Of a stretch of DNA of 64,000 bases, positions 18,203-52,358 are shown piece by piece. The DNA lies in NCBI GenBank assembly GCA_012798695.1, contig JAAZMR010000028.1, forward strand, positions 57,168 to 121,167, in the 5' to 3' direction. Source of the DNA: Bacillota bacterium (GTDB lineage Bacteria > Bacillota > Limnochordia > DTU087). The translations under genes and the position numbers were made by a program. The notes beneath the pieces are model-generated. The model saw only the letters and a program-made list of their open reading frames with translations. It ran no database searches and had not been told where the DNA came from. Position 1 is the stretch's first letter. Each line of letters opens with the position of its first letter.

Positions 18203-18229
18203 GCTCTAGACTCCTCATGCCTTTTCCCA

Positions 18230-18697: not shown

Positions 18698-18760
18698 AAA
18701 AACACCTCATCATTGACTTCCTACACTAATTCCCTACTGAAGAGGTCTTACAATAGAAGT

Positions 18761-29306: not shown

Positions 29307-29336
29307 AGGCGTCCCCCCCTCATGCTAAAAGTCGAA

Positions 29337-30728: not shown

Positions 30729-30820
30729 ATACTTCCCCCATAAATCCGCACAGCAAATCACTTTAAGTATAGCATTCCTATTAGTATATATCAATTTGAA
30801 CAGTATGAGCTAAGCAGCAC

Positions 30821-30858
30821 AAAAAAAGAGAGCACCGGCGAGTAAACACCGATGCTCC
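30821..30858 (-). terminator. Intrinsic terminator after clpC
   Basis: Minus strand GGAGCATCGGTG-tttact-CGCCGGTGCTCT then CTTTTTTT. Confidence 0.75.
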
Positions 30859-30870
30859 ACACAGCCCAAA

Positions 30871-33315: not shown

Positions 33316-33342
33316 TAACCCTCACCTTCCTTTTGCCTTCTG

Positions 33343-34422: not shown

Positions 34423-34440
34423 CCCCCTCTCACTTTTGGC

Positions 34441-34977
34441 CTAGCGGTCCTCCCGCCGCTCAGCTTCCCGCAGTTCCTTTTCTAGGTGGCGGATCTTATC
34501 CCGCAGCTTAGCTGCTTGCTCGTAATTCTCTTGGGCAATAGCCGCTCGCTGCTGTTCTCGTAGTTCCTCCATCTGCCTGCGATATCCGATAGCAGCACTG
34601 CTATACCCGGGCACTTTGCCTGTATGACCGGTGCCACCTTGAATCCGCCTCAGCAGAGGTTGAATTTGACTCTCAAACTGTTCATAGCAGACACTACACC
34701 CCAAACGTCCTACTTCCTTAAACTTGGCATAGCTGAAACCACAATTAGGGCAACGCCCCATAGCTGTCTCTACCGCGGGGCCCGGAGATATTGTCTGGGC
34801 ATGCTGCAGCATCCCTGTCAAAAAGTCTTGAAAGGTAAACGCCGGTTGGGAGACAAAAGTCAATTCACCCTTAGCTTGTGCACATTCCTGACACAAATGG
34901 ACTTCTGTCTTCATGTTGTTTACGATCTTGGTGATATGAACCGTAGCCGGATGCTTGCGGCATTCTTCACATAGCAT
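34441..34977 (-). CDS. mcsA: McsA (CxxC/UVR activator of McsB)
   Basis: Four CxxC motifs, HTGKVP, C-terminal UVR (YEQAAKLRD). Confidence 0.95.
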   Translation of the reverse strand: MLCEECRKHPATVHITKIVNNMKTEVHLCQECAQAKGELTFVSQPAFTFQDFLTGMLQHAQTISPGPAVETAMGRCPNCGFSYAKFKEVGRLGCSVCYEQFESQIQPLLRRIQGGTGHTGKVPGYSSAAIGYRRQMEELREQQRAAIAQENYEQAAKLRDKIRHLEKELREAERREDR

Positions 34978-35092
34978 CTCCCTTACCTCCCTCTGTGTGC
35001 CTTACCAATCCACGAGACTCTGAACACTTAGCCTGAATTAGTCTATTGCACTGTCGCTCTACTGCTACATTATTGTCTGCACAGGCAGAAGG

Positions 35093-35572
35093 TTAGCTTC
35101 CATATAGCAATACCATCAGCATGGAACGCAGTAACATGGCTCTAATCCTGCCGGCATAGACCGGATTGATATTCTGCATCTCCTCTGCCAACAGAGAGCG
35201 AATGACCACTGCTTCTTTTCTACTCAAGTACTCGTGGTCCAAGAGCCTGACCAGCACTGCTTCCGCCCCATCCATGTCTATACTTTCACCGATTGTCTCA
35301 TATATCCAAGGGCAGATCCCTTGCTGGTGTTGAGGCTCCAAACGGAGAATGCGGATATAGCCACCGCCTCCCCGCCGACTTTCTACTATATATCCCCGCT
35401 CGTTACTAAAACGAGTTTTGAGTACATAGTTGATTTGGGATGGCACACATTCAAATAACTCTGCCAGCTCGATTCGCCTAATCTCTAGCCCGCTCTGCCC
35501 GGATTGATCCAATAAGGCTTTGATATATCGCTCGATATGATCTGCTAAACTGCTAATGAATGCCACCTCCAC
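35093..35572 (-). CDS. ctsR: Class III heat-shock repressor CtsR
   Basis: CVPSQINYVLKTRF, VESRRGGGGYIRI; true start uncertain (see findings). Confidence 0.96.
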   Translation of the reverse strand: MEVAFISSLADHIERYIKALLDQSGQSGLEIRRIELAELFECVPSQINYVLKTRFSNERGYIVESRRGGGGYIRILRLEPQHQQGICPWIYETIGESIDMDGAEAVLVRLLDHEYLSRKEAVVIRSLLAEEMQNINPVYAGRIRAMLLRSMLMVLLYGS

Positions 35573-38170: not shown

Positions 38171-39199
38171 CTAACCAATCTCTGACAGCTTAACAGGCCG
38201 ATTCTCTACAGCTGATTTTGCAGCAGCCATAGCGATTAGAAGAGACTGCAGGCCGTCTTCTCCGGTTACCGGAGGGACAGTGTTTGCCTTTACACAAGTG
38301 ACGAAGTCATTCATTTCTTCTGCAAAAGAATCCATATAACGCTCTAGGAAGAAATAGAGCGGTTTATCACTGATCACGCCATCTTTGTTGCTGACGGTGA
38401 CCCGTGTAGGTGCTTCGTTCTGAGCGGCAGCAGCCCCCTTGGAGCCAAATACCTCTACCCGCTGGTCATAACCATAGACTGCCTGACGGCTGTTATCTAT
38501 GGTACAGACAGCGCCATTGGCAAACTTGAGTAGTGTTACCGCTGTATCAAAGTCGCCGGCCTCCTTAATCTGCGGGTCAATCAATACATTACCTACGGCA
38601 TAGACCTCGATTACGTCACTGCCTGTCAGATAACGGGCCATGTCAAAATCGTGAATCGTCATATCCATAAAAATGCCACCGGAAACCTTCACATATTCCA
38701 AGGGAGGTGGTGCGGGATCCCGAGACGTAATATTGACTATGTGCGGTTCACCGATTTCTCCGGATTCAACTAATTGGCGAATGTGCTTGAAGTTCCGATC
38801 AAAGCGGCGATTGAAACCGATCTGCAGTTTCGCCCCAGCCTTATCGACAGCTGCCAGAGCTTGCTTGGTTGCATCTAGTTTCTGGGCAATGGGTTTCTCA
38901 CAGAAAATCTGTTTTCCCGCCCGGGCTGCTTCGATTACATACTCTGCATGTGTACTGGTGGGTGAACAGATCACCACCGCATCGATCGTGGCATCATTGA
39001 TCAGTTCTTTCGGCTCTGCTACTACCTTTTCAATCCCATATTGAGCTGCCCATTGTTGCGTGTTCTCTACATCGATATCTGCGACTGCCACCACCAAGGC
39101 ATCGGGCACTCTGTAAACTAGATTTTCAATATGAATTTTGCCAATTCGACCGGCACCGATAACACCAATACGCACCTTTCCATCACTGGCCATATTCAT
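38171..39199 (-). CDS. iolG: myo-Inositol 2-dehydrogenase
   Basis: GAGRIG, CEKP, GFNRRFD, SRDP.PP, DMTIHDFD, YGYDQRVEV, FFLERY. Confidence 0.93.
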   Translation of the reverse strand: MNMASDGKVRIGVIGAGRIGKIHIENLVYRVPDALVVAVADIDVENTQQWAAQYGIEKVVAEPKELINDATIDAVVICSPTSTHAEYVIEAARAGKQIFCEKPIAQKLDATKQALAAVDKAGAKLQIGFNRRFDRNFKHIRQLVESGEIGEPHIVNITSRDPAPPPLEYVKVSGGIFMDMTIHDFDMARYLTGSDVIEVYAVGNVLIDPQIKEAGDFDTAVTLLKFANGAVCTIDNSRQAVYGYDQRVEVFGSKGAAAAQNEAPTRVTVSNKDGVISDKPLYFFLERYMDSFAEEMNDFVTCVKANTVPPVTGEDGLQSLLIAMAAAKSAVENRPVKLSEIG

Positions 39200-39204
39200 C
39201 TCTC

Positions 39205-40101
39205 CTAAAAACCGAGTTGCTCTCGTAAGTATTCTCTAGCCTTAACTGCATACTCCAAAGGTGGAGCAAGGGCAGGATCTTGCTCAGCTTCTACGATAAT
39301 CCAGCCTTTATAATCGATCTCGTCCAGTGCCTGAATAACCGGAGTGAAGTCAATCATCCCATCCCCGGGGACAGTGAATACTCCTTGCCTAACTGATTGC
39401 AGGAAACTCAACCCTTCATCAAACGATCTTTGCATTATGGTGGGACGCAGGTCCTTGAAATGCACATGCTGGATGCGTGGACCAAAGGTCTTGACTATTT
39501 GCACGGGATCGCCGCCGGCAAACACTATGTGGCCCGTATCCAAAAGTAGATGAACCAACTCTGGATCAGTGAGCTCCATCAGTTTTTCTGTTTCGGCGAA
39601 GGTCTGGACTCCAGTGCCCATATGATGATGATACACGATCTTCATATCCTTCTCCCTGGCCAACCGGCCCAGCTCTTCTAGACCCACAGCTAGCTTGTTC
39701 CACTCGGTCTCAGTAAAAACCGGCTTATTTTTGTGCAGGGGTACATCCATCTGGCCCTGTATGGATTTCCCCTGCTCAGAAACAACGATTACCTCAGCCC
39801 CCATGGCATGCAGAAAATCGCGATGTTCGATAAACGCATCATAGGTTTCTTGCGGGTCTTTTGTGGTAAAATAAGCGCTAAACCAGGCGCTTGCAATGGA
39901 AAGGCCCCGTGGCTTGAGAGCCGCGGCCAATGTCTTAGGATCCCTGGGGTATTTGTTGCCGACCTCGCTGCCGACATAGCCCGCCTGTGCCATTTCATCT
40001 ATGCATTGCTCGAACGAGATCTCGCCCCCTAGTTCAGGCATATCATCATTGGTCCAAGCGATTGGAGCTACACCCAGGCGTATATCACCTTGTCTCAACA
40101 T
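39205..40101 (-). CDS. iolE: myo-Inosose-2 dehydratase
   Basis: APIAWTNDDMPELG, YHHHMGT, DTGH, HVHFKD, FTVPGDG, VEAEQDP. Confidence 0.95.
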   Translation of the reverse strand: MLRQGDIRLGVAPIAWTNDDMPELGGEISFEQCIDEMAQAGYVGSEVGNKYPRDPKTLAAALKPRGLSIASAWFSAYFTTKDPQETYDAFIEHRDFLHAMGAEVIVVSEQGKSIQGQMDVPLHKNKPVFTETEWNKLAVGLEELGRLAREKDMKIVYHHHMGTGVQTFAETEKLMELTDPELVHLLLDTGHIVFAGGDPVQIVKTFGPRIQHVHFKDLRPTIMQRSFDEGLSFLQSVRQGVFTVPGDGMIDFTPVIQALDEIDYKGWIIVEAEQDPALAPPLEYAVKAREYLREQLGF

Positions 40102-40152
40102 TCCGAACACCCCCACATATTCGTTCACAACAAAACACCTGTACTACAAGGC

Positions 40153-42024
40153 TCACCATTTCCTGGCTCTCGTCAATACCTCTTCATGTTGAGCATGAGC
40201 TGCAGTCACCTGCACGTTATCTGAGATCTCTGCCACTCCCACCCGCCAATATGATTCATAGCCCTCTGAGTGGGTGCCCGGAATGACCTTGATATCGATT
40301 AGAGCTGCACCTTCCGCCTTTTGCGCTTTCTCTAAGGTCCCTCTCAAATCAGCCAAGTCAGTGACAGTATACGCACTGGCGCCAAGACTCCTGGCGATAC
40401 CGGCGAAATCAACAGTGATATAATCACCATCAAGTCTGCCGCTAGCAGAACGATAGCGCAATTCATTGCCGAAACCAGCCTGACTGCCATGTTCCTTCTG
40501 CAAGCTCTGGATACACTGGAAACCACCATTATCAAACATGAGGATAGTGATCTTCCGCCCTTCCTGGACAGCAGTGAGCAGCTCCGAGTGCAGCATGAGA
40601 AAGCTGCCATCACTGACCATCGCATAGACATCCTTGTCAGGTTCTGCCATTTTGACGCCTAAAGCCCCGGCAATCTCATAGCCCATACAAGAAAAGCCAT
40701 ATTCCATATGGTAAGTTTTGATCCCCTTGGATCTCCACATACGATGTAAATCACCGGGCAGTCCCCCTGCGGCGGCTACAATGATATCGTTTTTTGTCAG
40801 GAAATCATTGACCACTCCCAAAGCTGTGGTCTGCATAATCCCATCCTTTGATTGCAGAGAATAGAGCCGATCGACTTCCTGGTTCCACTTCGCCTTGAGG
40901 TCAGCCAGATAGTCTGCGCTATATGCAGTCTTATACCCCACCTCCTTCAAAGCTTGGGTGAGTGCCAGCAGACCTAATTTGGCGTCTGCTCCGAGGAAGG
41001 TAGATGACATTTTAAGACCATCGAAGGCACAGACATTCATATTGAGAATCTCGACCTCGGGGTTTTGAAAAGCGGTTTTCGATGCTGTGGAGAAATCTGT
41101 TAATCTAGTGCCCACGGCGATAATCAGGTCTGCCTCTTTGGCCAGTCTATTGGCGGCCAACGTACCAGTAGTCCCCACTCCCCCCATGTTCAGGGGGTGA
41201 TCCCAGGTGAGAATGCTCTTGCCGGCTTGAGTTACCGTTATGGGGATCTGAAAGGCCTCGGCAAACTGCTGCAGCTCTTTTCCGGCCAGGGCATAGTGGA
41301 CACCACCACCCGCAATAATCACGGGGTGCTGCTTGCCCTTAATCAACTGCACTGCTCGCTTGATACTGCCCTCAGAGGCCGGCCGTCGGTCAATATGCCA
41401 TACCCGCTTAGCAAAAAACTCTATGGGATAGTCATAAGCTTCACCTTGGACATCTTGGGGCAGGGCTAAGGTAACTGCACCGGTATCTGCCGGATCGGTG
41501 AGCACCCGCATGGCATTGAGGGCTGCAGTCATCACCTGTTCCGGCCGCTGAATCCTGTCCCAATACCGACTGACTGCCTTAAAGGCATCATTAGCGGTAA
41601 TAGTGTAATCATGGGGCATCTCCATTTGCTGCAAGACTGGGTCAGGTTGCCGGTCGGCAAAGATGTCTCCTGGTAATAGAAGAACTGGAATCCGATTAAC
41701 TGTGGCAGTGGCGGCACCGGTCACCATATTCAGAGCTCCAGGCCCGATGGAACTGGTACAAGCCAAGATCCCAAGGCGGTTTTTCTGTTTAGCAAAGGCC
41801 GTGGCCGCATGTACCGCCCCTTGTTCATTATGTGCTTGATAATACCGTAGGGATAGACCCTCCGTGTTCTCTAGGGCTTCCCCGATTCCCAACAGGTTGC
41901 CATGACCAAAAATACCATAGACACCGTGGACAAACTTATACTCCTGATCATCAAGTTCGACATACTGAGCATCTAGGAATCTAAGCAGTGCCTGGGCCAT
42001 AGTTAACCTAATGGTCTTACTCAT
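40153..42024 (-). CDS. iolD: 3D-(3,5/4)-trihydroxycyclohexane-1,2-dione acylhydrolase (ThDP-dependent)
   Basis: RLTMAQAL, GIFGHGN, SSIGPGALNM, RQPDPVLQQ, YHMEYGFSCMGYE. Confidence 0.95.
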   Translation of the reverse strand: MSKTIRLTMAQALLRFLDAQYVELDDQEYKFVHGVYGIFGHGNLLGIGEALENTEGLSLRYYQAHNEQGAVHAATAFAKQKNRLGILACTSSIGPGALNMVTGAATATVNRIPVLLLPGDIFADRQPDPVLQQMEMPHDYTITANDAFKAVSRYWDRIQRPEQVMTAALNAMRVLTDPADTGAVTLALPQDVQGEAYDYPIEFFAKRVWHIDRRPASEGSIKRAVQLIKGKQHPVIIAGGGVHYALAGKELQQFAEAFQIPITVTQAGKSILTWDHPLNMGGVGTTGTLAANRLAKEADLIIAVGTRLTDFSTASKTAFQNPEVEILNMNVCAFDGLKMSSTFLGADAKLGLLALTQALKEVGYKTAYSADYLADLKAKWNQEVDRLYSLQSKDGIMQTTALGVVNDFLTKNDIIVAAAGGLPGDLHRMWRSKGIKTYHMEYGFSCMGYEIAGALGVKMAEPDKDVYAMVSDGSFLMLHSELLTAVQEGRKITILMFDNGGFQCIQSLQKEHGSQAGFGNELRYRSASGRLDGDYITVDFAGIARSLGASAYTVTDLADLRGTLEKAQKAEGAALIDIKVIPGTHSEGYESYWRVGVAEISDNVQVTAAHAQHEEVLTRARKW

Positions 42025-42823
42025 GATCTTGCCTCCTTTCAGGAAACATCACCGCTTCTTCTTCCATCACCCATTTATGCTCTGGAACAAAGGTCGGTAC
42101 ACCATAAGGGTTATCATCCAGGTGCCGGATCACCCAGATATAGTACATGGCATAACCCGGAGCCGTAATATGGGGATGTACTTTGCTATCGAGAATCTTG
42201 ACTGAGTCATGATCAGTCAAGAGATAAGCTTCATCCCCAATGATGCCCACTCCAAACCCGTGGCTAGGCAGGAACCGGTAATGATAGATCTCCGGTTGGG
42301 GATGATGGTGAGGTGGATAGCTCGACCACTTCCCGGGAAAGTCCACTACTTCACCTACAACCAAGTTAGAATAAGGAGCATTGGTCTTGTCAAAGATAGT
42401 CCTGACAATCCTCGTGGAGGTTTCCTGCATGGTGCCCTTGCCTCGTTCTTCACTACGGGTATCTGTCGCACTATAGAATCTCGGGACAAACTTCACATCA
42501 CCACTGGTACGTGTGATGTTTAACTCCACATCGGTATGAGCTGTGATCTTGAGTGCCACATTGGGAGGCAAGTGTAGACAGCTGGGATTGTCGTGAAATA
42601 GGGATTCCCTTTCAGCGTGCTGCTCTTCTCCATCGAAACTAAATGTGACAGAACCGGTCATGAGCAGCCATGCGCTCTCCTTAGGGCTCTTTTCTTCGTG
42701 GACTTCACCGGCCCGCAGCCGTAGGAAGCCGAAGTCCATCATAGTATTGGCCTGGGCCTCATCCTCAGTAGTAACCGTTGTGTAACCCCACTTGAATGGA
42801 CCTTTCGCTTTTAAATGATACAA
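42017..42823 (-). CDS. iolB: 5-deoxy-glucuronate isomerase (IolB/KduI family)
   Basis: LVVGEV..PGKWSSYPPHHH, EIYHYRF, HP..TAPGYAMYYIW; overlaps the iolD start. Confidence 0.85.
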   Translation of the reverse strand: MYHLKAKGPFKWGYTTVTTEDEAQANTMMDFGFLRLRAGEVHEEKSPKESAWLLMTGSVTFSFDGEEQHAERESLFHDNPSCLHLPPNVALKITAHTDVELNITRTSGDVKFVPRFYSATDTRSEERGKGTMQETSTRIVRTIFDKTNAPYSNLVVGEVVDFPGKWSSYPPHHHPQPEIYHYRFLPSHGFGVGIIGDEAYLLTDHDSVKILDSKVHPHITAPGYAMYYIWVIRHLDDNPYGVPTFVPEHKWVMEEEAVMFPERRQDHE

Positions 42824-42835
42824 AACACAGCCTCC

Positions 42836-43804
42836 TTAGTTCTTTTTATGCAATACCTTTTGCACACTATCGACTATGGCATCAGCCGTCAATCCAAAAC
42901 GCTGCTTTAGGTAAGCGACATCTCCCACTTCACCAAAGAGATCGCGGACTCCCACTCTCTCCATGACCACTGGGTGTTTTTCTGTCAACACTTCCGCTAC
43001 AGCTGAACCTAAGCCGTTAATAATGCTGTGATTCTCTGCCGTAACGACTGCTCCGGTCTTCTGAGCACAGCTAATCACCAAGTCTTTGTCAATGGGCTTA
43101 AGTGTGAAGATGTTGACTACCATGGCTGAAATACCTTGCTGGTCAAGAATATCTGCTGCATCTAATGCCTCAGCTACCATGATGCCGATCGCAAAGATGG
43201 TGACATCCTTGCCCTCCCGTAAAAGAGCCCCTTTGCCGATAGTAAATTCCGATCCTTCCTTATAGATACGAATAGGATTTTTCCTAGCTATGCGGATATA
43301 AAAGGGCCCTGGTGTATCAATAACTTGAGGAAGGATCGCTTTGACCATAGTGTTATCAACTGGTTCAACTACAGTCATAGTGGGGATAGAGCGCATGATT
43401 CCCAGATCGTCAAAGGGCATATGAGTGCCACCATTATAGGCCGCAGTGATACCAGGATCAGTCCCCACTATCTTGGCATTAAGCTGTGCATAGGCTATGG
43501 ATACATAGATCTGATCTAGTGCTCTGCGGGAAGCGAAACAAGCAAATGTATGGCAGAAAGGTACTTTGCCTGTGGCGGAAAGCCCACCGGCAATACCGAT
43601 CATATTGGCTTCTTGTACTCCGACATTGATAGACCTATCCGGATAGGCCTCCTGGAAAGCGATGGTCCCATTAGAGTGCATCAAATCCGCGTCCAAGACA
43701 ACGATACGCTCATCCTTTGCTGCCTGCTCTAATAGGTGTGCCATATATACGTCCTTCATTTGAAGTTCATCAGGGATGCGTTGATCTACTAAGTTCGCCT
43801 TCAA
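42836..43804 (-). CDS. Transketolase-like protein, pyrimidine-binding + C-terminal subunit
   Basis: LDADLM.S, VGVQEANM, FACFASRR, YIRIAR, TLKPID, AENHSIINGLGSAV. Confidence 0.92.
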   Translation of the reverse strand: MKANLVDQRIPDELQMKDVYMAHLLEQAAKDERIVVLDADLMHSNGTIAFQEAYPDRSINVGVQEANMIGIAGGLSATGKVPFCHTFACFASRRALDQIYVSIAYAQLNAKIVGTDPGITAAYNGGTHMPFDDLGIMRSIPTMTVVEPVDNTMVKAILPQVIDTPGPFYIRIARKNPIRIYKEGSEFTIGKGALLREGKDVTIFAIGIMVAEALDAADILDQQGISAMVVNIFTLKPIDKDLVISCAQKTGAVVTAENHSIINGLGSAVAEVLTEKHPVVMERVGVRDLFGEVGDVAYLKQRFGLTADAIVDSVQKVLHKKN

Positions 43805-44658
43805 GCTTGTTCCCCCCTTTTCCAGGCTCCCTCATACCCTAAAGCCTTGAGCGCATCTTCTATCTGCGCGGGAGTGAATCGCATATGATGGTTGAGCTTG
43901 ATCCCCTCAGCAAACTGACAGCCTTTACCCTTGATTGTATCTAAAATGATCACGGAACTGCGACCTTTAACCGCTTTTGCCTGATGAATAGCTTCATAGA
44001 TAGCGGTTACATCATGGCCATCAACCAGCTGAGCATACCAGCCGAAACTCGCCCACTTTTCAAGAAGATCGCCCAATGAGTTGATATCCTTGGTATAGCC
44101 ATCTAGCTGCTGTTTGTTCTCATCGACAAAGACTATGAGATTGTCTAGTCCGGCATTGCCGCCATAGAGGGCTCCTTCCCAAACTTGCCCTTCCTGACAT
44201 TCACCGTCACCCAAGATAACATAGACACGATTATCCTTCCCGCTCATTCTCAGGCCCAAAGCTACCCCCAATCCAGTAGACATCCCCTGCCCGAGGGAAC
44301 CGGTGGTCATGTCTACACCGGGGGTTAGGTTTCGATCACAGTGACTAGGTAGGTTTGTGCCGCCCTGATTGAGGGTGAACAACATGTCCTTGGAGAAAAA
44401 GCCTCGCAAGGCTAATGCAGCATACAGAGCGGGACCGGCATGTCCTTTAGAAAGCACTAACCAATCCCGTTCTTCCATGTCGGGCCGGTTGGGATCAACT
44501 CGCATGACGCCACCGTATAATACGGCCAGCACCTCGACAATGGACATTGCACCCCCGATATGCCCAAATCCAAGATTGCCTAAGGCCTTCAAAGTCTCAA
44601 TTCTTATTTCCCTGGCAAAACTGTTCAATCTTGCCACTTCGTGTTCTGCTAACAACAA
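43801..44658 (-). CDS. Transketolase-like protein, N-terminal ThDP-binding subunit
   Basis: GHIGG, LSKGHAGPALY, TGSLGQG, GDGECQEGQVWE...N, TIKGKG. Confidence 0.92.
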   Translation of the reverse strand: MLLAEHEVARLNSFAREIRIETLKALGNLGFGHIGGAMSIVEVLAVLYGGVMRVDPNRPDMEERDWLVLSKGHAGPALYAALALRGFFSKDMLFTLNQGGTNLPSHCDRNLTPGVDMTTGSLGQGMSTGLGVALGLRMSGKDNRVYVILGDGECQEGQVWEGALYGGNAGLDNLIVFVDENKQQLDGYTKDINSLGDLLEKWASFGWYAQLVDGHDVTAIYEAIHQAKAVKGRSSVIILDTIKGKGCQFAEGIKLNHHMRFTPAQIEDALKALGYEGAWKRGEQA

Positions 44659-45926
44659 TGCTCACCACCTGAACTGCCAATTTGGGGCAGTGTTGAGGCT
44701 CCATAAGGAAACACTGCATATGCCATATCTTCACCAACTATGGTAAACCCTGCTCTGATGGCATCTTCGATATTCCGGTAAGTATCGATGCCAACCAAGT
44801 CTTCATGGACCAACTGCTCAGAAGTAACCAATAGCACCTTGATATCATTGGCTATCTTGGCGATGGCCGCGGCCTTGTGGCCACCCAAGACAAATTCTTT
44901 GCGAAGCGCCTCCAAAAGCTGTGCTGGTTCTTTTTTTGAAGTCATCCATTGTCGAAAGATCTTATTGCCATACCCTTCCCGGCATTCAGCCACCAAGATA
45001 ATGACTCCGCCTTGGCGCACGACCCCGGCACAATTATCCAGGGCCTTCTGTGCCTGGTAAAGATTGATATCCTTAGGATCGCCACCTGCACTGACAATGG
45101 CTAGATCCAGTCGCTGGGGTACGGAAACTGTGCCCGCTTGCCGCAAGCGCTCACATAATCTGCGGTGAGCTTCAGTTAGGTCGCCGGCACTCGCATCAAT
45201 TACTCTATGCTGCTCATCCACAATCACATTGAGCAGAAAATCCACTCCCACCATGGAAACGGCTTCTTCTAAATCCTCCCGAACGGGATTGCCCTCTAGC
45301 CGAGCAGCCATGGCGCTATCTTCAACCATATGGGCATGGTTACTCCTGATGGTAATTGGTGCCGCTACCCCTGGTACTATAGCTTTGGCGCCACCGGAAT
45401 AGCCGGCAAAATAGTGAAACTCTACATTTCCGATACAGATGCGAAAGTCCGCTTCCACCACTGGGCGAAAGATTTCTACAGGCGTCCCCCGCTGCGTCCG
45501 CCCCAAGGCCACCACATCGTGAATATCATGGTTAATCACACTTACTCGCTGAAAAACACGTTCCCCAACCGATTGAGCAAGCTCCTGGGCAGTCATCGGC
45601 CTATGCAATCCTAAGCCGATAACTACGGTAATGTCTTCATCCTTGACCCCAGCGGCATTGAGCCTTTCTAAGATCGGGGGCAGCAGTATCGAATTCGGGC
45701 ATGGTCTAGTCGCATCACTAGTTATGATGACTGCTTGCTGGCCCGGTTCCAGGAGCTCCTCCAGCCTGGCTGATCTTGTGGGATGATCGAGGGCCATCTG
45801 TACAATCTCTCGTTCTGGTATGCTTACCTCTTGTCGTATAGGCAGAAACGTGCCCACATGACCTGCCTTGGGCAGTTGTAAAGCTTGAAAACCGTGTCCG
45901 TAAGGTAATGCAACTTCAACCGCCAA
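44649..45926 (-). CDS. LarA-family nickel-pincer alpha-hydroxy-acid racemase (probable malate racemase)
   Basis: DATRP, GLGLHR, HYFAGYSGGAK, NH, DINLYQAQK; family assignment secure, substrate inferred. Confidence 0.88.
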   Translation of the reverse strand: MAVEVALPYGHGFQALQLPKAGHVGTFLPIRQEVSIPEREIVQMALDHPTRSARLEELLEPGQQAVIITSDATRPCPNSILLPPILERLNAAGVKDEDITVVIGLGLHRPMTAQELAQSVGERVFQRVSVINHDIHDVVALGRTQRGTPVEIFRPVVEADFRICIGNVEFHYFAGYSGGAKAIVPGVAAPITIRSNHAHMVEDSAMAARLEGNPVREDLEEAVSMVGVDFLLNVIVDEQHRVIDASAGDLTEAHRRLCERLRQAGTVSVPQRLDLAIVSAGGDPKDINLYQAQKALDNCAGVVRQGGVIILVAECREGYGNKIFRQWMTSKKEPAQLLEALRKEFVLGGHKAAAIAKIANDIKVLLVTSEQLVHEDLVGIDTYRNIEDAIRAGFTIVGEDMAYAVFPYGASTLPQIGSSGGEHCC

Positions 45927-45928
45927 TT

Positions 45929-47191
45929 TTACACCTTCCTATATGCTTTCTTTAGTGCTTTAATCAAAGGAAGCTCAACCCCGGATAAGAACCGGACCAT
46001 GGCTCCACCGGCGGTACAGATATAGTCAAAGCGCGCCTTGGCGTCATCCACCAGCATGGCTGCCGCATTGACACTATCGCCTCCGCCTACCACACTATAG
46101 CCTGGTGAAGCGGCAACAGCATTCCATATGGCGCGTGTCCCCTGTTCAAACAGGGGATTTTCATAGACACCCATGGGACCATTCACAAAAATGGTACCCG
46201 CATCTTCAATCACGGATTTATAGCAGGAGATTGTCTGTGAGCCAATATCCAGGTATAGCACATCATCAATGGGCAATTCGTCCAAGCTGCATTCCACACG
46301 AGAGCCATTTCGCTCATAGGCGAAATCCACCGGGTTTACGAATCGCTCTCCATACTTCTCTATAAACGCCTGAGCTGGTTCTACAAATCCATCTAATGAA
46401 CGTTCTTTAAGAAACTGTTCTTGTTGCTTGCCAAAGCTCTTGCCTTGAGCTATCCACATAATCATCCCCGTGACACCACCGGTCAAGATCCGATCAGCAC
46501 TGCCATTTTCCAGCACTTGCCGGATCATGCCAAAGGCATCAGAAATCTTCAGTCCACCGAGGACAAAGATCGACGGCCTTTGCGGATTTTCCATGATTGA
46601 GTAAAGAGCCTGTACTTCTGAAATGAGCTGCCTACCTCCAGCTGTAGGTAGGACCTCAGCAAACCCCACCATGGATGGAGCGTTTCTGTGGGCCGCCGCA
46701 AAAGCATCATTGACGTAGTAATCAGCCAAATATGCCAACTGGCGGACTAGATAGCAGTCTACCATCTCCCTGGGAGACAATTTAACTGATCGCTCAAAGG
46801 TGGATACTTCCTCAGTCAAATACCGAACATTACCCAGTAGTACCGCTTCCCCAGGCTGCAGAGCTTTGACTGCACCCTGGGCAGCCGGACCGGCGACATC
46901 ATCGATATACCGGACAGTCTGACCCAGTCGGGCAGATAACCTTTCCGCATGTTCACTCAAGGGGATGAGATTATGATAATCCAAAGTGTCGCCCTGGTGG
47001 GCGAGAATAGCCACCTTCGCCCCCTGATCCAGCAGGGTCTTCAGGGTCGGAATACTCTTGTTGATGCGGTTGTCATTGACGATTTTCTTGGTAACAGGAT
47101 CAAGGGGCGAATTGATATCTACCCGCAAGATCACGGTTTTTCCCTGGTAATCAAAATCATCAATGGTATTGATCTGCAAATCAGCTACCAT
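45929..47191 (-). CDS. Phosphoglycerate-kinase-family protein, archaeal type, altered basic patch
   Basis: LRVDINSP, AHQG, NVRY, VNDAFAAAHR, LGGLK, DIG, NGPMG.YE, VGGGDS, TAGGA. Confidence 0.9.
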   Translation of the reverse strand: MVADLQINTIDDFDYQGKTVILRVDINSPLDPVTKKIVNDNRINKSIPTLKTLLDQGAKVAILAHQGDTLDYHNLIPLSEHAERLSARLGQTVRYIDDVAGPAAQGAVKALQPGEAVLLGNVRYLTEEVSTFERSVKLSPREMVDCYLVRQLAYLADYYVNDAFAAAHRNAPSMVGFAEVLPTAGGRQLISEVQALYSIMENPQRPSIFVLGGLKISDAFGMIRQVLENGSADRILTGGVTGMIMWIAQGKSFGKQQEQFLKERSLDGFVEPAQAFIEKYGERFVNPVDFAYERNGSRVECSLDELPIDDVLYLDIGSQTISCYKSVIEDAGTIFVNGPMGVYENPLFEQGTRAIWNAVAASPGYSVVGGGDSVNAAAMLVDDAKARFDYICTAGGAMVRFLSGVELPLIKALKKAYRKV

Positions 47192-47193
47192 GG

Positions 47194-48210
47194 CTACCTC
47201 CCCAGTTTCAAGTGCTGATTCGTCACTCCAACTGCCTCTAGGCGATCTGTCTGCATCTCCATGCTGGCCCGAACCGCATCTATGGTCTCGGGAATGACTA
47301 CTGCTTCCTGGGGGATATTAATGGCAAAAACGATCCTGTCTTCAAATACGGTAATGGTTTCCTCCCAAACAGCAATTTCATACATGTCCCCCCTGGGATT
47401 ACCTAGATCCCGGGCATAGCGGAATAGAGAAGCATTGCCCAGAAACCCGTCAGCTAACCGGACAACGCGAATCCTCGGATGAGCTTCAAACAGCTCTAAG
47501 ATCTCTTCCTTAGTGGTTTCCCGCTTCGGCTTGGCTACCACAGAAATGATGTGTCCATGGGTGACCGGAGTGTGCACCAGTACCCCGGTTGCCTTTACGT
47601 GAGGCATGATCAGCATGAGATCCACAGCCTGATGATTAGGTACTGGATCAACTTTCAGGGCATTCGTCAACCCCCGATGATAATCTCCGGGATCTGCCAC
47701 CCGCCTGATGATAGTAATGATCACGTTCTCGATACCGATCTCCCGATCCAAGCAATCCACCGAGCGAATGAGCCCAGTTGTATTACAGGAGGTAAGCTTT
47801 AGAAACTGCTTGCCCATCCCCTGCTCATAGTTGGCATAACCATGAAAGAAAACATCAGCTACACTAGTTTTTTCTCCACCTTGGAAAACAGCTTTCTTAC
47901 CATATTTTTCATAGATTTGCTTGTTCTTGGCACCGACACCGGCACTAGTCGCATCCAAAATGATATCGACCTTTTGCACCAGATCTTCCAGGGAACCGGA
48001 AATTGGAATACCATATTCTTCTACCTTGTCTCGGTTCTCTGGTAAAGCCAGGTAGAAGTCGTAGTTCATGCCCCTCTCTTTCAAAGCCATTACCGGCAGT
48101 GTGGGGCCTATATCAGCTACACCAACCAGTTCCATATCCTTCTGTAAAGCAACTCCGTCGGCTAGCCGCTGACCAATCACTCCATAGCCAACTACACCAA
48201 CCTTAACCAT
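47194..48210 (-). CDS. Type II (archaeal-type) phosphorylating GAPDH-family protein
   Basis: GYGVIGQR, FQGGEK, SCNTTGL catalytic Cys, RRVADP, RDLGNPRGDMYE, QEAVVIPETIDAVRA; start MVKVG after AGGAGG. Confidence 0.9.
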   Translation of the reverse strand: MVKVGVVGYGVIGQRLADGVALQKDMELVGVADIGPTLPVMALKERGMNYDFYLALPENRDKVEEYGIPISGSLEDLVQKVDIILDATSAGVGAKNKQIYEKYGKKAVFQGGEKTSVADVFFHGYANYEQGMGKQFLKLTSCNTTGLIRSVDCLDREIGIENVIITIIRRVADPGDYHRGLTNALKVDPVPNHQAVDLMLIMPHVKATGVLVHTPVTHGHIISVVAKPKRETTKEEILELFEAHPRIRVVRLADGFLGNASLFRYARDLGNPRGDMYEIAVWEETITVFEDRIVFAINIPQEAVVIPETIDAVRASMEMQTDRLEAVGVTNQHLKLGR

Positions 48211-48440
48211 AATATCCCTCCTGATGTAATTCAGATCATCCACTACTCAAGACTTTCGTCGATCCTTGTCGAAAAATCAACTAATTGTCGACTTGGGCCC
48301 ATGTAGCGTGTCTCCTCGTGAACTTCATATGCAGTATCCTTTCCGGTTCCTGATGCTAACTACAAGGCCTTGAGCCACAGTCCCCGTAAATCACTAATAG
48401 TTTAACGACAGCACTATGGATTTTCGGTCCTATTGCGTTC

Positions 48441-48749: not shown

Positions 48750-49175
48750 TGAAGAGAGGACGTATCCAGCCAATGTCAGAGAGCAAACTCCGTTTATAGT
48801 AGCAATGATCGGATGCGACGCCTGATGAAGGAGCTCAATCTAGTTCCTATGCAAGTTCGGAAATGTAAAGCAACAATCAATTCTAAACACTCAGTGCCGG
48901 TGGCACTTAACCTGTTTAATAGGGACTTCGGGGCTAATGCACCGTGTCAGAACTGGTTAGGAGATCTTACCTCTCCACAGAGGAAGGGTGGCTATACTTG
49001 GGAGCATTTATCGATCTTTATTCCCGGGAAGCTGTGGGTTGGGCCCCAGGAACTCGTATGACCATGCCATCAGTCCTCGATGCTGTGAACAAAACCCTAC
49101 AACTCGAACGTCCCTCCAAAGGCCTCATATTCTGTTCTGACAGCGGTTCCCAGTATGCTCCCCATGATTACCGTT
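48750..49175 (+). pseudogene. Degraded IS3-family transposase (OrfB/rve) fragment
   Basis: RRLMKE..TINSKHSVPVALNLFNRDF.A.AP...W.GDLT, frameshift, then YLSTEEGWLYLGAFIDLYSR..VGW and IFCSDSGSQY; truncated before the catalytic Glu; no inverted repeats seen. Confidence 0.85.
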
Positions 49176-49277
49176 CTGAAAGATTGCATTCTCCAATGAA
49201 ATGGAAAAAGGTGGTGATATGCAAACAAAAACCCGGTTGTTGGTGCACGCGAACATACAAATGGGAGGTCATGAAGC

Positions 49278-50570
49278 ATGAAGAGAATCACTAAAACACT
49301 CGCATTATGTGTACTAATGGTCTTGCTCATTAGTATGGTTAGTTTCGCAAAAGGCAAGATCGAGCTAACTGTACAGACTTATTGGGATCCTGAATTGGGT
49401 AGTGGAGCGAGGCTCGAACAGTCGTTCAAAGATTTTATGGCTCTCTATCCAAACATCGAAGTAAAGCACATTTACCTACCTCGAGATCAACTCATCCAAA
49501 GAGTCTTGTCACAGGTCTTGACAGATACCCTTCCCGACATTGTCTTTGCCGATAATCCTTGGGTAAGGCAATGGGCAGAGGCTGGTGTCTATAAGGACAT
49601 TACTCCACTAGTTGAACAGTGGGATGACTACGAAGACTTCTTCCACGGAACCCGAGATGCTTGTACTTTTCAGGGTAGAGCCTATGCACTACAGCTAGTA
49701 ACCAACAACTTAGCCTTATTCTACAACAAGGACATGTTTGCCGAATTAGGCATAGCTGAACCGCCCAAGACATGGGATGATATCAAAGCCATCTCTGCCA
49801 AAGTCACTGCCAATCTCCCTGGGGTATATGGGTTAGCCTTCTCCGCATGGGATGACGAGGAGTGTACATGGCAGTTTGAGCCTTTCATCTGGAGTAACAA
49901 GGGAAGCTTGCTAGAATTGGATCAGCCAGAAGCCGTGGCTGCCTTGCAGTTCTGGACTGATCTAGTTAATGAAGGATATACTGCTCGTGACTGCTTGAAT
50001 TGGCGTCAGCAAGACGTAACTCATCAGCTGGTTAACAAGAAAGTGGCAATGATGGTCATGGGCCCATGGGAAATCCGTTCCGGACTAAAAGATGCCGATT
50101 TCGAATACGGCATTGTACCCATACCAGTACCCAAAGCGGGATACAATCCGGTCAGCCCCATGGGCGGAGAGTGTTTTGGGTTAAGCTCGTCAATAGACCC
50201 AAGTAAGATAGACGCGGCTTGGCAGCTAATCGAGTACCTAGTAGCCCCAGAACATATGGCCGACTTTACCACGGCATCCGCTACCGTTCCCACCCGGGGT
50301 GCAGCCCTGGAGTTCGTCTTAGACAGGGAGCCTCGGCTAGAGGTATTTGCAAAACAGGCAGAGTATGCCCTGGCCAGGACTGTAGCAGGCGGTGGAGAGA
50401 AGTATCCTGAGGTCTCAGCCATCACCCGCAGTGCTATTCAGCGAGCCCTATCGGGTATGATGGATCCTCAAGCTGCATTCACTCAAGCAGCCGGAGAAAT
50501 CAAGGAGCTTTGGCCTGCCGACGAATACGAAGCACTGAGGAACGAGGTACGAGAGGTTCATAGTCGATAG
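49278..50570 (+). CDS. Carbohydrate ABC transporter solute-binding protein (CUT1/SBP_bac_1)
   Basis: Signal peptide, PDIV, LFYNKDMF...PPKTWD, AMMVMGPW, MGGE; GGGAGGT RBS. Confidence 0.92.
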   Translation: MKRITKTLALCVLMVLLISMVSFAKGKIELTVQTYWDPELGSGARLEQSFKDFMALYPNIEVKHIYLPRDQLIQRVLSQVLTDTLPDIVFADNPWVRQWAEAGVYKDITPLVEQWDDYEDFFHGTRDACTFQGRAYALQLVTNNLALFYNKDMFAELGIAEPPKTWDDIKAISAKVTANLPGVYGLAFSAWDDEECTWQFEPFIWSNKGSLLELDQPEAVAALQFWTDLVNEGYTARDCLNWRQQDVTHQLVNKKVAMMVMGPWEIRSGLKDADFEYGIVPIPVPKAGYNPVSPMGGECFGLSSSIDPSKIDAAWQLIEYLVAPEHMADFTTASATVPTRGAALEFVLDREPRLEVFAKQAEYALARTVAGGGEKYPEVSAITRSAIQRALSGMMDPQAAFTQAAGEIKELWPADEYEALRNEVREVHSR

Positions 50571-50607
50571 AACGATCGCACTAGATAGTCTTAGCTATTC
50601 AATCTTG

Positions 50608-50632
50608 GGCGGAAGGGGCTTCCCCTTCCGCC
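50608..50632 (+). other. Perfect 11-bp hairpin between the SBP and first permease (mRNA-stabilising/stoichiometry element)
   Basis: GGCGGAAGGGG-CTT-CCCCTTCCGCC immediately before the permease RBS; no U-tract. Confidence 0.6.
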
Positions 50633-50648
50633 TCAGGAGGTTTTCAAG

Positions 50649-51524
50649 GTGGGCAAGCTCAGATATAGACTCGGTTGTTATTTGTTTCTCTTACCTGCGA
50701 TTCTTTACATCTGCCTATTATTGATCTACCCCTTGATATACAACACGGGCCTTAGCTTTAGGGACGTCAGTCTAATCAGTTATATGAAGGGAACCAGCAA
50801 ATTCGTAGGTTTTGCTAACTATCAAAAACTATTTAGAGACCCTATCTTTCATAGGATTCTATATAATACGGCTATCTTTATGGTGCTGTCCATTGTGTTT
50901 CAGTTTGTCCTTGGTCTTCTGTTAGCTTTGTTATTCGATAGGGATTTCCCCCTGAATAACATATTTCAAGGGCTAATACTGCTGCCTTGGTTCGTACCGA
51001 TTATGGTAAAAGGCAATATTTTTCGGTGGTTCTTTAGTGATATGGGCACCATCAACGGTTTCCTAAGTTCTTGGGGTATAATTTCTCAGCCTATTCCTTG
51101 GATAACTAGCAACAGCCTACCGATTATATCTTTATCCATTGCGAATATCTGGCTGGGAATTCCTTTTAACTTCATCTTGCTGTTTACCGGTCTGAAGGGA
51201 ATCCCCGTGGAACTCTATGAGTGTGCTCAGATTGATGGGGCAACAAAGTGGTATCAGACAATCTTTATCACTATTCCGCTCCTCAAACCAGTAATTATTA
51301 CTACCCTCATGCTCGGATCGATTTTCACCATCAAAGTCTTTGATTTGGTTTGGATTATCACCAAAGGCGGACCCGGCAACTTATCGCACCTGTTCAGTAC
51401 GTATTCCTACTCTCTGGCTATGGAACAGTTCAAATTCGGTATGGGAGCAGCTGTAGCCATCGTCATGGTATTGATTGTAACGGTGATCACCATTGGCTTT
51501 AACTCCATCAAGGTCGATTACTAG
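50649..51524 (+). CDS. Carbohydrate ABC transporter permease (MalF-like)
   Basis: FLLPA, FVGFANY, EAA-loop variant ELYECAQIDGA, ITKGGP. Confidence 0.92.
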   Translation: MGKLRYRLGCYLFLLPAILYICLLLIYPLIYNTGLSFRDVSLISYMKGTSKFVGFANYQKLFRDPIFHRILYNTAIFMVLSIVFQFVLGLLLALLFDRDFPLNNIFQGLILLPWFVPIMVKGNIFRWFFSDMGTINGFLSSWGIISQPIPWITSNSLPIISLSIANIWLGIPFNFILLFTGLKGIPVELYECAQIDGATKWYQTIFITIPLLKPVIITTLMLGSIFTIKVFDLVWIITKGGPGNLSHLFSTYSYSLAMEQFKFGMGAAVAIVMVLIVTVITIGFNSIKVDY

Positions 51525-51536
51525 GGGGAGACACTC

Positions 51537-52358
51537 ATGAAATATACGTGGAAGGATTGGAAGTGGACGCTGATAGCCCTGATACCGGTATTGATCTTGA
51601 TCATACCCATTTATTTTGTATTGATCAGCGGTTTCGAAACCGTGGAAGAGATCTATCATCAGCCTCCATATTTGGTTCCACCCAATCCCACATTGCAGTA
51701 CTATGCTGATGCTTGGACAACTCTTAATCACTACTTGATGAATAGTGTGGTAATATCCGTAGGGGTACTGATCCTGACAATCGTGGTAGCAGCTCCAGCA
51801 GCTTTTGCCTTGGCCAAACTCAATTTGCGGGGCGAGAAAACAGTATCATTTCTGATGGCATTGGTGCAAATGTTACCAGTGACCACGGTCGTCATTCCCC
51901 TGTTCCTGATTTTCTTTAAGCTTAAACTTATCAATACGCATGTTGGGGTAATCCTTGGTATTTCGGCGTTCACCATCCCCTTTAGCGTAATCTTGCTGAC
52001 CGCTTATATGCGCTCCATGCCCTGGGGATTGATTGAAGCAGCTCGCATCGACGGTGCATCACTCTTCACCATTTTTGTGCGAATAGTGATGCCTATCTGC
52101 AAGCCGGCTCTCTCTACCGCTGGAATGCTTGCATTGCTGAATGCATGGGGAGACTTCATCTTCGCAATATCCTTTCTGCAAGAGCGATCTCTGCAGCCCA
52201 TGAGCGTGGGGTTATATAGTTTCATAGGTCAGTATGGCACCCAATGGAACTTGCTCATGGCAGGAAGCATGATTTACTCACTGCCGGTGATCATCGTTGT
52301 CACCCTCGCCGGTAAAGGATTGGTGTCTGGCCTAACTGCCGGTGCATTCAAGGAGTAG
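51537..52358 (+). CDS. Carbohydrate ABC transporter permease (MalG-like)
   Basis: NS, EAARIDGAS, AWGDF, GLTAGAFKE. Confidence 0.92.
   Translation: MKYTWKDWKWTLIALIPVLILIIPIYFVLISGFETVEEIYHQPPYLVPPNPTLQYYADAWTTLNHYLMNSVVISVGVLILTIVVAAPAAFALAKLNLRGEKTVSFLMALVQMLPVTTVVIPLFLIFFKLKLINTHVGVILGISAFTIPFSVILLTAYMRSMPWGLIEAARIDGASLFTIFVRIVMPICKPALSTAGMLALLNAWGDFIFAISFLQERSLQPMSVGLYSFIGQYGTQWNLLMAGSMIYSLPVIIVVTLAGKGLVSGLTAGAFKE

Follow-up and report, generated by a model that had tools for sequence, protein, structure and literature searches.

A phosphoglycerate kinase paralogue with an invariant aspartate in its 3-phosphate site, encoded in a bacterial inositol operon, is a candidate ATP-forming D-malate kinase

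A 64,000-nucleotide (nt) stretch of a Bacillota genome (Limnochordia, DTU087; GenBank assembly GCA_012798695.1, contig JAAZMR010000028.1, positions 57,168 to 121,167), called the window below, contains nine minus-strand genes whose gaps or overlaps do not exceed 24 nt. From gapII through pgkx, mar, tkN, tkC, iolB, iolD and iolE to iolG, they encode a type II (archaeal-type) glyceraldehyde-3-phosphate dehydrogenase (GAPDH), a paralogue of phosphoglycerate kinase (PGK), a LarA-family racemase, the two subunits of a split transketolase, and IolB, IolD, IolE and IolG of myo-inositol catabolism. The PGK paralogue, PGKx (45929..47191, minus strand), is the subject of this analysis. A first-pass annotation, made from the letters of the DNA, had singled it out as a candidate ATP-forming malate kinase with a reversed charge in the substrate site. 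The examination of the gene, its relatives and its surroundings leads us to predict that PGKx is a 1-phospho-D-malate:ADP phosphotransferase, that is, an ATP-forming D-malate kinase.

PGKx is a protein of 420 residues that matches a single Pfam family, PF00162, over positions 1-378 of the 379 in the PGK profile (355.3 bits), which is a full-length family match. The closest relative of solved structure is the PGK of Pyrococcus horikoshii (2cun, 277 bits), so the enzyme had rightly been called archaeal-like. Translation of window positions 46979-47002 on the minus strand gives AHQGDTLD, confirming the AHQGDT motif and its Asp codon at 46988..46990. This residue, Asp68, aligns with the Arg of SHLGRPK in the PGK of Thermotoga maritima and with the Lys of HQGKPY in that of P. 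horikoshii. In the accessible text of PMC7729029, the 3-phosphate of 3-phosphoglycerate (3-PG) is hydrogen-bonded by Arg65, Arg122 and Arg170 (pig numbering), the bridging oxygen is bound by His62, and the 2-hydroxyl is bound by Asp23 and Asn25. The counterparts of Arg65 (so numbered in pig and human PGK), Arg122, Arg170, His62, Asp23 and Asn25 in PGKx are Asp68, Arg123, Arg169, His65, Asp25 and Asn27. The arginine that has been lost thus belongs to the basic patch for the 3-phosphate, as the annotation had stated.

The replacement is shared by all of the best-scoring relatives listed. A search of 5.8 billion proteins, in which 8000 candidates were scored and 3887 had E values of at most 0.001, gave a list of the best 120 matches (62-100% identity), and every one of these has Asp at position 68 (115 HQGDT, 4 HQGDS and 1 HEGDT). 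From a scan of species-representative genomes came 581 confirmed relatives, of which the best 80 define 79 loci: 53 are bacterial, 51-82% identical to PGKx and uniformly HQGDT, and 26 are archaeal and 38-44% identical. The alignment used for residue comparisons comprised 52 clade sequences (51 public loci and the window) and 24 archaeal PGKs. The two groups are told apart by just six columns, five of which cluster in the loop after the His. Column 68 is D in 52/52 clade sequences versus R in 22 and K in 2 of the 24 archaeal PGKs; the others change from archaeal P to clade T (column 69), G to L (70), D to N (74), F to L (75) and H to D (372). Asp68 is therefore no chance variant but defines a clade.

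Apart from these columns, the catalytic equipment of a PGK is kept. No variation is seen in either group at D25, N27, R42, H65, R123, R169, D218 and E344, which include the D-x-N pair for the C2 hydroxyl and the Arg that had been described as retained. The basic patch is incomplete throughout the clade only in the Arg65 equivalent, the counterparts of His62, Arg122 and Arg170 all being present. The hinge and nucleotide-site residues that were checked are conserved in clade and archaeal PGKs alike, in line with the earlier statement that these motifs are intact; the deviations are Arg for K215 in 3/52 clade sequences (K in the other 49, and in 24/24 archaeal PGKs) and, in the glycine run 369-371 kept by both groups, Ser for G371 in 1/52. 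The second motif that had been pointed out, LLGNVRY, is present at residues 118-124 but is less strict. Its Gly is found in 41/52 clade members and is replaced by D in 11/52, which makes it a looser clade marker than Asp68. In summary, PGKx shares with an archaeal PGK such as 2cun (EC 2.7.2.3) its fold, length, HQG and D-x-N motifs, two of the three patch arginines, hinge, nucleotide site and a type II GAPDH as partner. It differs by Asp in place of the patch Arg or Lys, by TL..NL in place of PG..DF, and by Ala, Ser or Cys in place of the Gln that follows AHRx. The members of the clade come from bacteria; their identity is 51% or more among themselves and does not exceed 44% with archaeal PGKs. 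Their genes are accessory and lie in catabolic operons.

A boundary around the clade is also seen in search scores and in a tree. Among 1.84 billion cluster representatives, the score falls from 674 bits for the representative of the clade to 374 bits. A FastTree phylogeny was calculated from 72 rows, for which one in four clade loci, one in two archaeal loci and one in three representatives with R or K were taken, together with all full-length representatives without R/K. The HQGDT sequences form a single clade with an SH-like support of 100. Next to it, with a support of 92, stands a small sister clade, which likewise lacks the Arg and reads HQGS[DM]. Whether HQGD PGKs form one clade adjoining a type II gap gene had been proposed as a check, and they do so, with the gap gene directly upstream in 49/50 loci. 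The presence of HQGD in glycolytic PGKs had been named as evidence against a changed substrate; none was seen among those examined, the genome's own pgk reading SHLGRP and all 24 archaeal PGKs having R or K.

Loss of the patch Arg is also found outside this group. The sister-type PGKs (HQGSDI or HQGGDL), which are 46-47% identical to PGKx, have lost the Arg and carry an Asp one residue later. Six further archaeal-type relatives are without the Arg, P0121 (HQGDPS), P0122 (HQGDSQ), P0141 (HQGQRG), P0177 (HQGQPG), P0215 (HQGDPG) and P0218 (HQGGDL). The tree places P0122 within the HQGDT clade and P0121, P0141, P0177 and P0215 among archaeal-type PGKs; P0218 is too short to be placed.

The gene upstream of pgkx, at a distance of 2 nt, encodes a diverged type II GAPDH (47194..48243, minus strand; NF003251, 407.5 bits versus a cut-off of 185) that we predict to be a phosphorylating D-malate-semialdehyde dehydrogenase. 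The mechanically called open reading frame (ORF) starts with GTG at 48243, but the real start is probably the ATG at 48210, which has AGGAGG seven bases upstream and gives a protein of 338 residues. The association is nearly constant: the count of 49/50 covers loci whose available upstream DNA is 1.1 kb or longer, the GAPDH gene lying on the same strand, and in the exception, L033, it is two genes away.

The residues of the GAPDH were mapped by alignment to the Methanothermus fervidus enzyme (1CF2 numbering, positions counted by hand). The roles of these residues are taken from the accessible part of PMC12041015, where Arg167 and Arg168 are said to bind the phosphate of glyceraldehyde 3-phosphate (GAP). 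The window protein keeps Ser139, Cys140, Asn141, His219, His193, Arg167 and Arg168; its C153, H231, R180 and R181 align with Cys140, His219, Arg167 and Arg168. The site for inorganic phosphate (Ser139, Asn141, Arg167, His193 and His194) is incomplete, in that His194 is replaced by Gln205 in 50/50 clade sequences versus His in 8/8 archaeal ones, the other four residues being kept. Further changes between the same 50 and 8 sequences are His221 to Ile, Leu217-Met218 to His-Gly, and RVV before the Cys to KLT. With the catalytic residues and part of the anion site kept and their surroundings changed, the substrate pockets of both GAPDH and PGKx appear to be remodelled. In addition, the Lys aligned with Lys33 is Asp in 49/50 clade sequences. 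In 1CF2 this position presumably contacts the 2'-phosphate of NADP+, and an Asp there suggests that the clade enzyme is linked to NAD+.

The genome of the window (2.68 Mb, 130 contigs) has a separate glycolytic pair, in which a type I gapA precedes a pgk of the bacterial kind that encodes SHLGRP and LLENVRF. This canonical pgk is broken across two contig ends, the end of C18 and the start of C43 (loci L003 and L002), and gapA is directly upstream on C18. In a panel of the window's genome and 40 relatives, PGKx (68-100% identity) is present in 7/41 genomes, all of one family, and a canonical PGK that is about 37-39% identical to PGKx is found in 7/7 of these carriers. PGKx is absent from the five genomes of another genus of that family and from all 29 genomes of other families. 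Among 300 further sampled genomes of the phylum, no HQGDT-clade member was found, and three sister-type genes were the only relatives of this kind. PGKx is therefore an accessory gene and not the glycolytic PGK of the cell.

These observations bear on the simplest explanation, that PGKx and its partner are an ordinary second PGK/GAPDH pair that came from archaea and serves, for instance, gluconeogenesis or NADP-linked flux, with Asp68 as a tolerated variant. In its favour are the complete PGK fold, in which the catalytic and nucleotide-binding residues are all present, a partner that exceeds the NCBIfam cut-off for type II GAPDH, and yeast PGK mutants at Arg65, which reportedly remain active. 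Against this stand a charge reversal that is fixed in the clade and in the best listed matches and occurs in 0/24 archaeal PGKs, the constant presence of a canonical PGK beside PGKx, the embedding of the gene in catabolic operons, and an Asp at the Lys33 position that is unlike an NADP-linked gluconeogenic enzyme if the Lys has the role we assume. We regard this explanation as improbable, and PGKx is very probably not a physiological 3-PG kinase.

An ordinary second pair is also at odds with the distribution of IolC. IolD is encoded in 11/41 genomes of the panel, one copy being truncated at a contig end. Seven of the 11 have PGKx and no IolC above the cut-off, and the other four have IolC above the cut-off on the contig of iolD and no PGKx. 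In the window's genome, IolC (TIGR04382) was not found, with a best score of 115 bits against a cut-off of 300, nor was IolA (TIGR01722), with 22 bits against 448.5; IolJ was not searched for. A clean split of this kind is expected if the genes for transketolase, GAPDH-II and PGKx replace the IolC-dependent branch below the product of IolB.

The remaining genes of the operon fit an inositol pathway with a different end. IolG (inositol 2-dehydrogenase; 38171..39199; TIGR04380, 485.4 bits versus 355), IolE (myo-inosose-2 dehydratase; 39205..40128; TIGR04379, 423.8 bits versus 290) and IolD (40153..42024; TIGR04377, 925.7 bits versus 715), all on the minus strand, exceed their cut-offs. The gene at 42017..42823 (minus strand) encodes a KduI/IolB-family isomerase (PF04962, 195.6 bits), which is assigned as a divergent IolB (5-deoxy-glucuronate isomerase) with 102.8 bits on TIGR04378, below the cut-off of 205. 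The split transketolase consists of an N-terminal, thiamine diphosphate (ThDP)-binding subunit (43801..44658, minus strand; PF00456) and a C-terminal subunit (42836..43804, minus strand; PF02779 and PF02780). The racemase (44649..45926, minus strand) belongs to the nickel-pincer LarA family and is Mar2-like. It scores 492.2 bits on NF052593 (malate racemase, LarAH6) against a cut-off of 500, and its best relative of solved structure is Mar2 (6d6z, E value of 1.4e-98). A gene for LarC (PF01969, 459 bits), a protein of cofactor biosynthesis, is on contig C30 of the same genome, and a malic enzyme is encoded elsewhere in it.

The transketolase next to PGKx is of a distinct type, as judged by its sequence. 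Over the two subunits (window 42836-44658, minus strand), it is 45-46% identical to the other split transketolase of the genome, on contig C17, with 45% for the N-terminal subunit. We compared 17 transketolases encoded beside the pair with 8 other split transketolases from the window's genome and four relatives, which were taken as housekeeping copies. Two arginines that are invariant in 8/8 of the comparison set are changed in the operon type, one of them to Trp in 12/17. The motif tHaG..GEDGgSHQ of the comparison set becomes sDPG..A[FY]NGGTHM. Exceptions are L039, L045 and L051, which have transketolases of other types. The changed His and Asp are presumably the equivalents of E. coli His461 and Asp469.

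The product of IolG, IolE, IolD and IolB would be 2-deoxy-5-keto-D-gluconate, formed from myo-inositol. The ketol head of this compound is D-threo, as in a transketolase donor, and the only difference from xylulose 5-phosphate is that -CH2-COO- replaces -CH2-OPO3. In the route that we infer, with its substrates, direction, stereochemistry and role for Asp68, the split transketolase of the operon would transfer the C2 ketol unit to an acceptor of the pentose phosphate pathway and leave D-malate semialdehyde. The latter, (R)-3-hydroxy-4-oxobutanoate, is the carboxylate analogue of D-glyceraldehyde 3-phosphate. GAPDH-II would then oxidize it with NAD+ and phosphate to 1-phospho-D-malate, and PGKx would transfer the acyl phosphate to ADP, giving D-malate and ATP. 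The Mar2-like racemase could convert D-malate to L-malate for the malic enzyme encoded elsewhere in the genome. Such a route would take the place of the ATP-consuming IolC/IolJ/IolA branch. At the active site of PGKx, Asp68 may reject a dianionic phosphate, and the two remaining patch arginines may hold the carboxylate. Compared with a phosphate ester, a carboxylate is shorter and bears a single negative charge; a site in which two Arg and the His are kept and the third Arg has become Asp would suit such a group and would disfavour 3-PG.

We therefore favour, with a probability of roughly 0.65, the reading that PGKx is a repurposed archaeal-type PGK whose product in this operon is D-malate, with formation of ATP. 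A wider statement is also probable, although held slightly less firmly: that the pair represents a widespread and so far undescribed carboxylate counterpart of lower glycolysis, forming 1-phospho-D-malate as a new metabolite and harvesting ATP from D-malate semialdehyde, that it supports a kinase-free, transketolase-dependent and ATP-yielding fermentation of myo-inositol in anaerobes while serving other sources of the aldehyde, and that the role of Mar2 is to dispose of internal D-malate.

The direction of flux has also to be considered. The reactions of PGK and phosphorylating GAPDH are reversible, pairs of type II GAPDH and PGK in archaea are mainly gluconeogenic, and D-malate could come from Mar and malic enzyme. 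The pair might thus consume ATP and reduce D-malate, with malyl phosphate as the intermediate, to a malate semialdehyde that enters a biosynthetic or transketolase-condensing route, as a natural parallel to the logic of aspartate kinase and aspartate semialdehyde dehydrogenase. The operon partners iolG, iolE, iolD and iolB, on the other hand, are catabolic and their product needs a sink; the exclusivity with IolC indicates a catabolic replacement, in a carrier without IolC and IolA; and the Asp at the Lys33 position would suit an NAD+-linked oxidative enzyme. Of the explanations considered, we give this one the least credence.

The genomic context supports the D-malate reading independently. 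When 54 loci (the window and 53 public ones) were surveyed with 16 query proteins, a gene similar to mar, malic enzyme or D-malate dehydrogenase was found in 27/54. The genes iolB, iolD or iolE occur in 15/54 loci, 11 of which also have a transketolase, and a gene for a 4-aminobutyrate (GABA)-type aminotransferase occurs in 4/54. The order GAPDH-II, PGKx, malic enzyme and LarA homologue, or a permutation of it, is found in L012, L014, L017, L019, L020 and L033. With the Mar2 model (cut-off 500), the LarA homologues of L012, L014, L019, L020 and L033 reach 536-591 bits, more than with the lactate-racemase model. We had considered that such homologues might be lactate racemases fed by lactaldehyde from an HpcH-type aldolase, and this was rejected on the basis of these scores. 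In Pelosinus (L009), an operon of iol, transketolase, GAPDH-II and PGKx genes has no racemase and ends in a gene for a tartrate/D-malate dehydrogenase (17867-18967; 496 bits versus 470). A gene of the same type is directly upstream of the pair in L039, from Acidimicrobiia (450.7 bits versus 470.4). The fit to D-malate put forward in the first-pass annotation is thus strengthened by Mar2-type racemases, malic enzymes and D-malate/tartrate dehydrogenases beside the pair and by the mutual exclusion of PGKx and IolC, the activity itself being a prediction.

Other sources of the aldehyde are suggested by some of these loci. GABA-type class III aminotransferases are encoded just upstream of the pair in L020 (7474-8835) and L021 (7555-8913), and in L055 (5793-7139) about 2 kb from the pair on the other strand. 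Those of L020 and L055 pass the cut-off of the GABA-transaminase model TIGR00700, and a sigma-54 activator gene precedes that of L020. By such aminotransferases, 4-amino-3-hydroxybutyrate would yield malate semialdehyde, the same aldehyde as in the inositol route. In the sister clade, the order GAPDH-II, PGK, Mar is found in L092 (8069-11693), L094 (4989-9739) and L093 (7668-11180), from genomes G161, G121 and G111, with a GAPDH-II that is 66-69% identical to that of the window. The Mar homologues of L092 and L094 score 581-583 bits, above the NF052593 cut-off of 500. In the same two loci a malic enzyme gene follows, and genes for acetoin-dehydrogenase-like E1 and E2, in L092 also E3, precede. 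This set suggests another ThDP-dependent way to the aldehyde.

A second recurring context has neither iolD nor transketolase and is seen in L012 (3404-8871), L014 (14596-16551) and L017 (194-4834). Jointly, these loci hold genes for an IolN-like hydrolase (177 bits versus 245), an HpcH/GarL-like aldolase, a D-2-hydroxyacid dehydrogenase and an aldehyde:ferredoxin oxidoreductase, as well as an IolB-like isomerase and a gene of the Asp/Glu-racemase family.

Diversity of this kind speaks for a different explanation, in which the ATP-forming chemistry is the same but the pair acts on another 2-hydroxy aldehyde or on a broader range, such as tartrate semialdehyde (yielding tartrate), D-glyceraldehyde (yielding glycerate), 5-deoxy-D-glucuronate, lactaldehyde or succinate semialdehyde, and D-malate is one product or none. 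Besides the contexts of L012, L014 and L017, the gammaproteobacterial loci contain a pyrroloquinoline quinone (PQQ) dehydrogenase and a TonB receptor, some loci have the pair without a malate enzyme (16/54), and tartrate gives its name to the dehydrogenase family found next to the pair in L009 and L039. Asp68 would also be compatible with a hydroxyl or amine. However, Mar2-type racemases above the cut-off and malic enzymes recur beside the pair in two sister clades, and in the iol operons the C4 acid-aldehyde is all that would remain once transketolase has cleaved the IolB product. An anionic distal group is favoured by both patch arginines of PGKx and by Arg167/Arg168 of the GAPDH, and the retention of D25 and N27 argues for a 2-hydroxyl and hence against succinate semialdehyde. 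We consider a different substrate unlikely, but it is the rival that we take most seriously.

Several observations weigh against the reading that we favour. The 16 loci in which the pair is alone are mostly from Gammaproteobacteria, Dehalococcoidia and Acidimicrobiia, and some are on short contigs. In 4/15 of the iol-bearing loci, the available DNA contains no transketolase. Four close relatives (G002, G003, G004 and G006) have no orthologue of the operon transketolase genome-wide, but only paralogues that are 42-44% identical, so that a general transketolase must serve there or the route differs. The genes for the IolN-like, IolB-like, aldolase, 2-hydroxyacid dehydrogenase and oxidoreductase proteins of L012, L014 and L017 are not explained by a D-malate route. 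In the window itself, the racemase is just below its family cut-off and IolB is divergent. The exclusivity of IolC and PGKx is a pattern among kin, the 7 carriers representing 5 genera of a single family and the 4 IolC genomes coming from two families.

The active site raises further points of this kind. An Asp is no obvious ligand for a carboxylate, and a neutral or cationic distal group suits it at least as well. Yeast PGK mutants at Arg65 reportedly keep much of their activity, which means that loss of the Arg alone need not abolish turnover of 3-PG. Arg65 of human PGK has a further role in the closed state, a salt bridge to Asp218, as described in the accessible part of PMC7729029. As Asp218 is kept in 52/52 clade sequences while the Arg is lost, domain closure must differ in PGKx.

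The closest precedent for the kinase reaction is synthetic. In the accessible text of PMC5481828 (Walther et al. 2017), a malate kinase was engineered from mutants of the E. coli aspartate kinase LysC for a synthetic malyl-phosphate pathway, and malate kinase and malyl-4-phosphate are stated as previously unreported. That system and the one proposed here have in common an ATP-dependent kinase acting on a malate carboxyl and a semialdehyde dehydrogenase of the superfamily of GAPDH and aspartate semialdehyde dehydrogenase (ASD). They differ in that the man-made kinase has the amino-acid-kinase fold, acts on C4 of L-malate (4-phospho-L-malate, with the aldehyde distal to the hydroxyl) and runs reductively, whereas PGKx has the PGK fold, would carry the acyl phosphate on C1 of D-malate, beside the hydroxyl, and would form ATP. 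In a full-text literature search whose coverage leaves out most subscription journals, no natural malate kinase, no malyl phosphate of non-engineered origin and no transketolase-dependent inositol route were found, the relevant finds being this engineered pathway and the carnitine pathway described next. One apparent match, PMC12130570, does not concern these enzymes and was discarded.

For the aldehyde there is a natural parallel. In the L-carnitine pathway of Acinetobacter baumannii, according to the accessible part of PMC11353897, malic semialdehyde is oxidized enantiospecifically to D-malate, and a decarboxylating D-malate dehydrogenase gives pyruvate. The intermediate and the product are those of the route proposed here, but the oxidation is by a non-phosphorylating enzyme of the aldehyde dehydrogenase (ALDH) superfamily with no gain of ATP. 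This precedent lends support to the stereochemistry assumed here and accounts for the D-malate dehydrogenase homologues that accompany the pair in L009 and L039. Mar2/LarAH6 (6d6z) is from Thermoanaerobacterium thermosaccharolyticum and was assayed as a malate racemase, its cellular role being left open by the authors in the accessible part of PMC7583248. It is the best solved relative of the window's racemase, and a PGKx-clade protein, P0094 (63% identical), is also named from this species.

The classical myo-inositol pathway of Bacillus subtilis proceeds by IolG, IolE, IolD and IolB to the kinase IolC, the aldolase IolJ, and IolA. Its first four steps and their genes are common to the window operon, in which genes for transketolase, GAPDH-II, PGKx and Mar occupy the place of the IolC/IolA part. 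The predicted route would spend no ATP and gain one, and would end in malate, not in dihydroxyacetone phosphate (DHAP) and acetyl-CoA. The use of a dedicated split transketolase on a non-phosphorylated ketose with an anionic tail is known from the sulfo-transketolase pathway of sulfoquinovose degradation, which acts on a different substrate and is not known to have a GAPDH/PGK-type ATP-forming step. The module looks like an undescribed pathway.

If the D-malate reading is correct, the pair would add a new natural substrate-level phosphorylation to the few that are known, built from the two best-known glycolytic enzymes. PGK and phosphorylating GAPDH, which are usually deemed specific for a single substrate, would include a large branch in bacteria that acts on a carboxylate analogue, and hundreds of annotations as phosphoglycerate kinase or type II GAPDH would be misleading in Bacillota, Thermotogota, Chloroflexota, Actinomycetota, Spirochaetota and Gammaproteobacteria. 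The fermentation of inositol, including that derived from phytate, would have to be reread in anaerobic digesters, sediments and possibly guts, and genomes with iolG, iolE, iolD and iolB but without iolC, iolJ or iolA would no longer seem incomplete. D-Malate and the malate racemase Mar2 would gain a physiological place. Metabolic engineering, which had to build a malate kinase (as in the accessible text of PMC5481828), would be offered a natural one.

Near-identical contigs that span most of the operon are also present in metagenomes from anaerobic digesters, sampled in two other studies (X3 and X7). In a biogas metatranscriptome (X23), five short contigs with 0-1 differences lie on iolE, iolD, both transketolase genes and mar. 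A contig of 1.9 kb with a depth of 34.7 touches pgkx and gapII (window 46198-47263) with several differences, and is probably a relative's copy of the gene pair. An RNA library can contain DNA and the contigs carry no expression levels, which makes them a weak hint of transcription of the operon.

On either side of the operon, two features of the window were noted. Between the operon's upstream region and the genes of a sugar ATP-binding cassette (ABC) transporter (49278-52358, plus strand) lies a truncated integrase-core (rve) fragment, an apparent insertion sequence (IS) remnant (48813-49294, plus strand). About 3 kb from the end of the operon, the stress cluster ctsR-mcsA-mcsB-clpC-radA-disA, which is conserved in Bacillota, occupies positions 28227-35572 on the minus strand.

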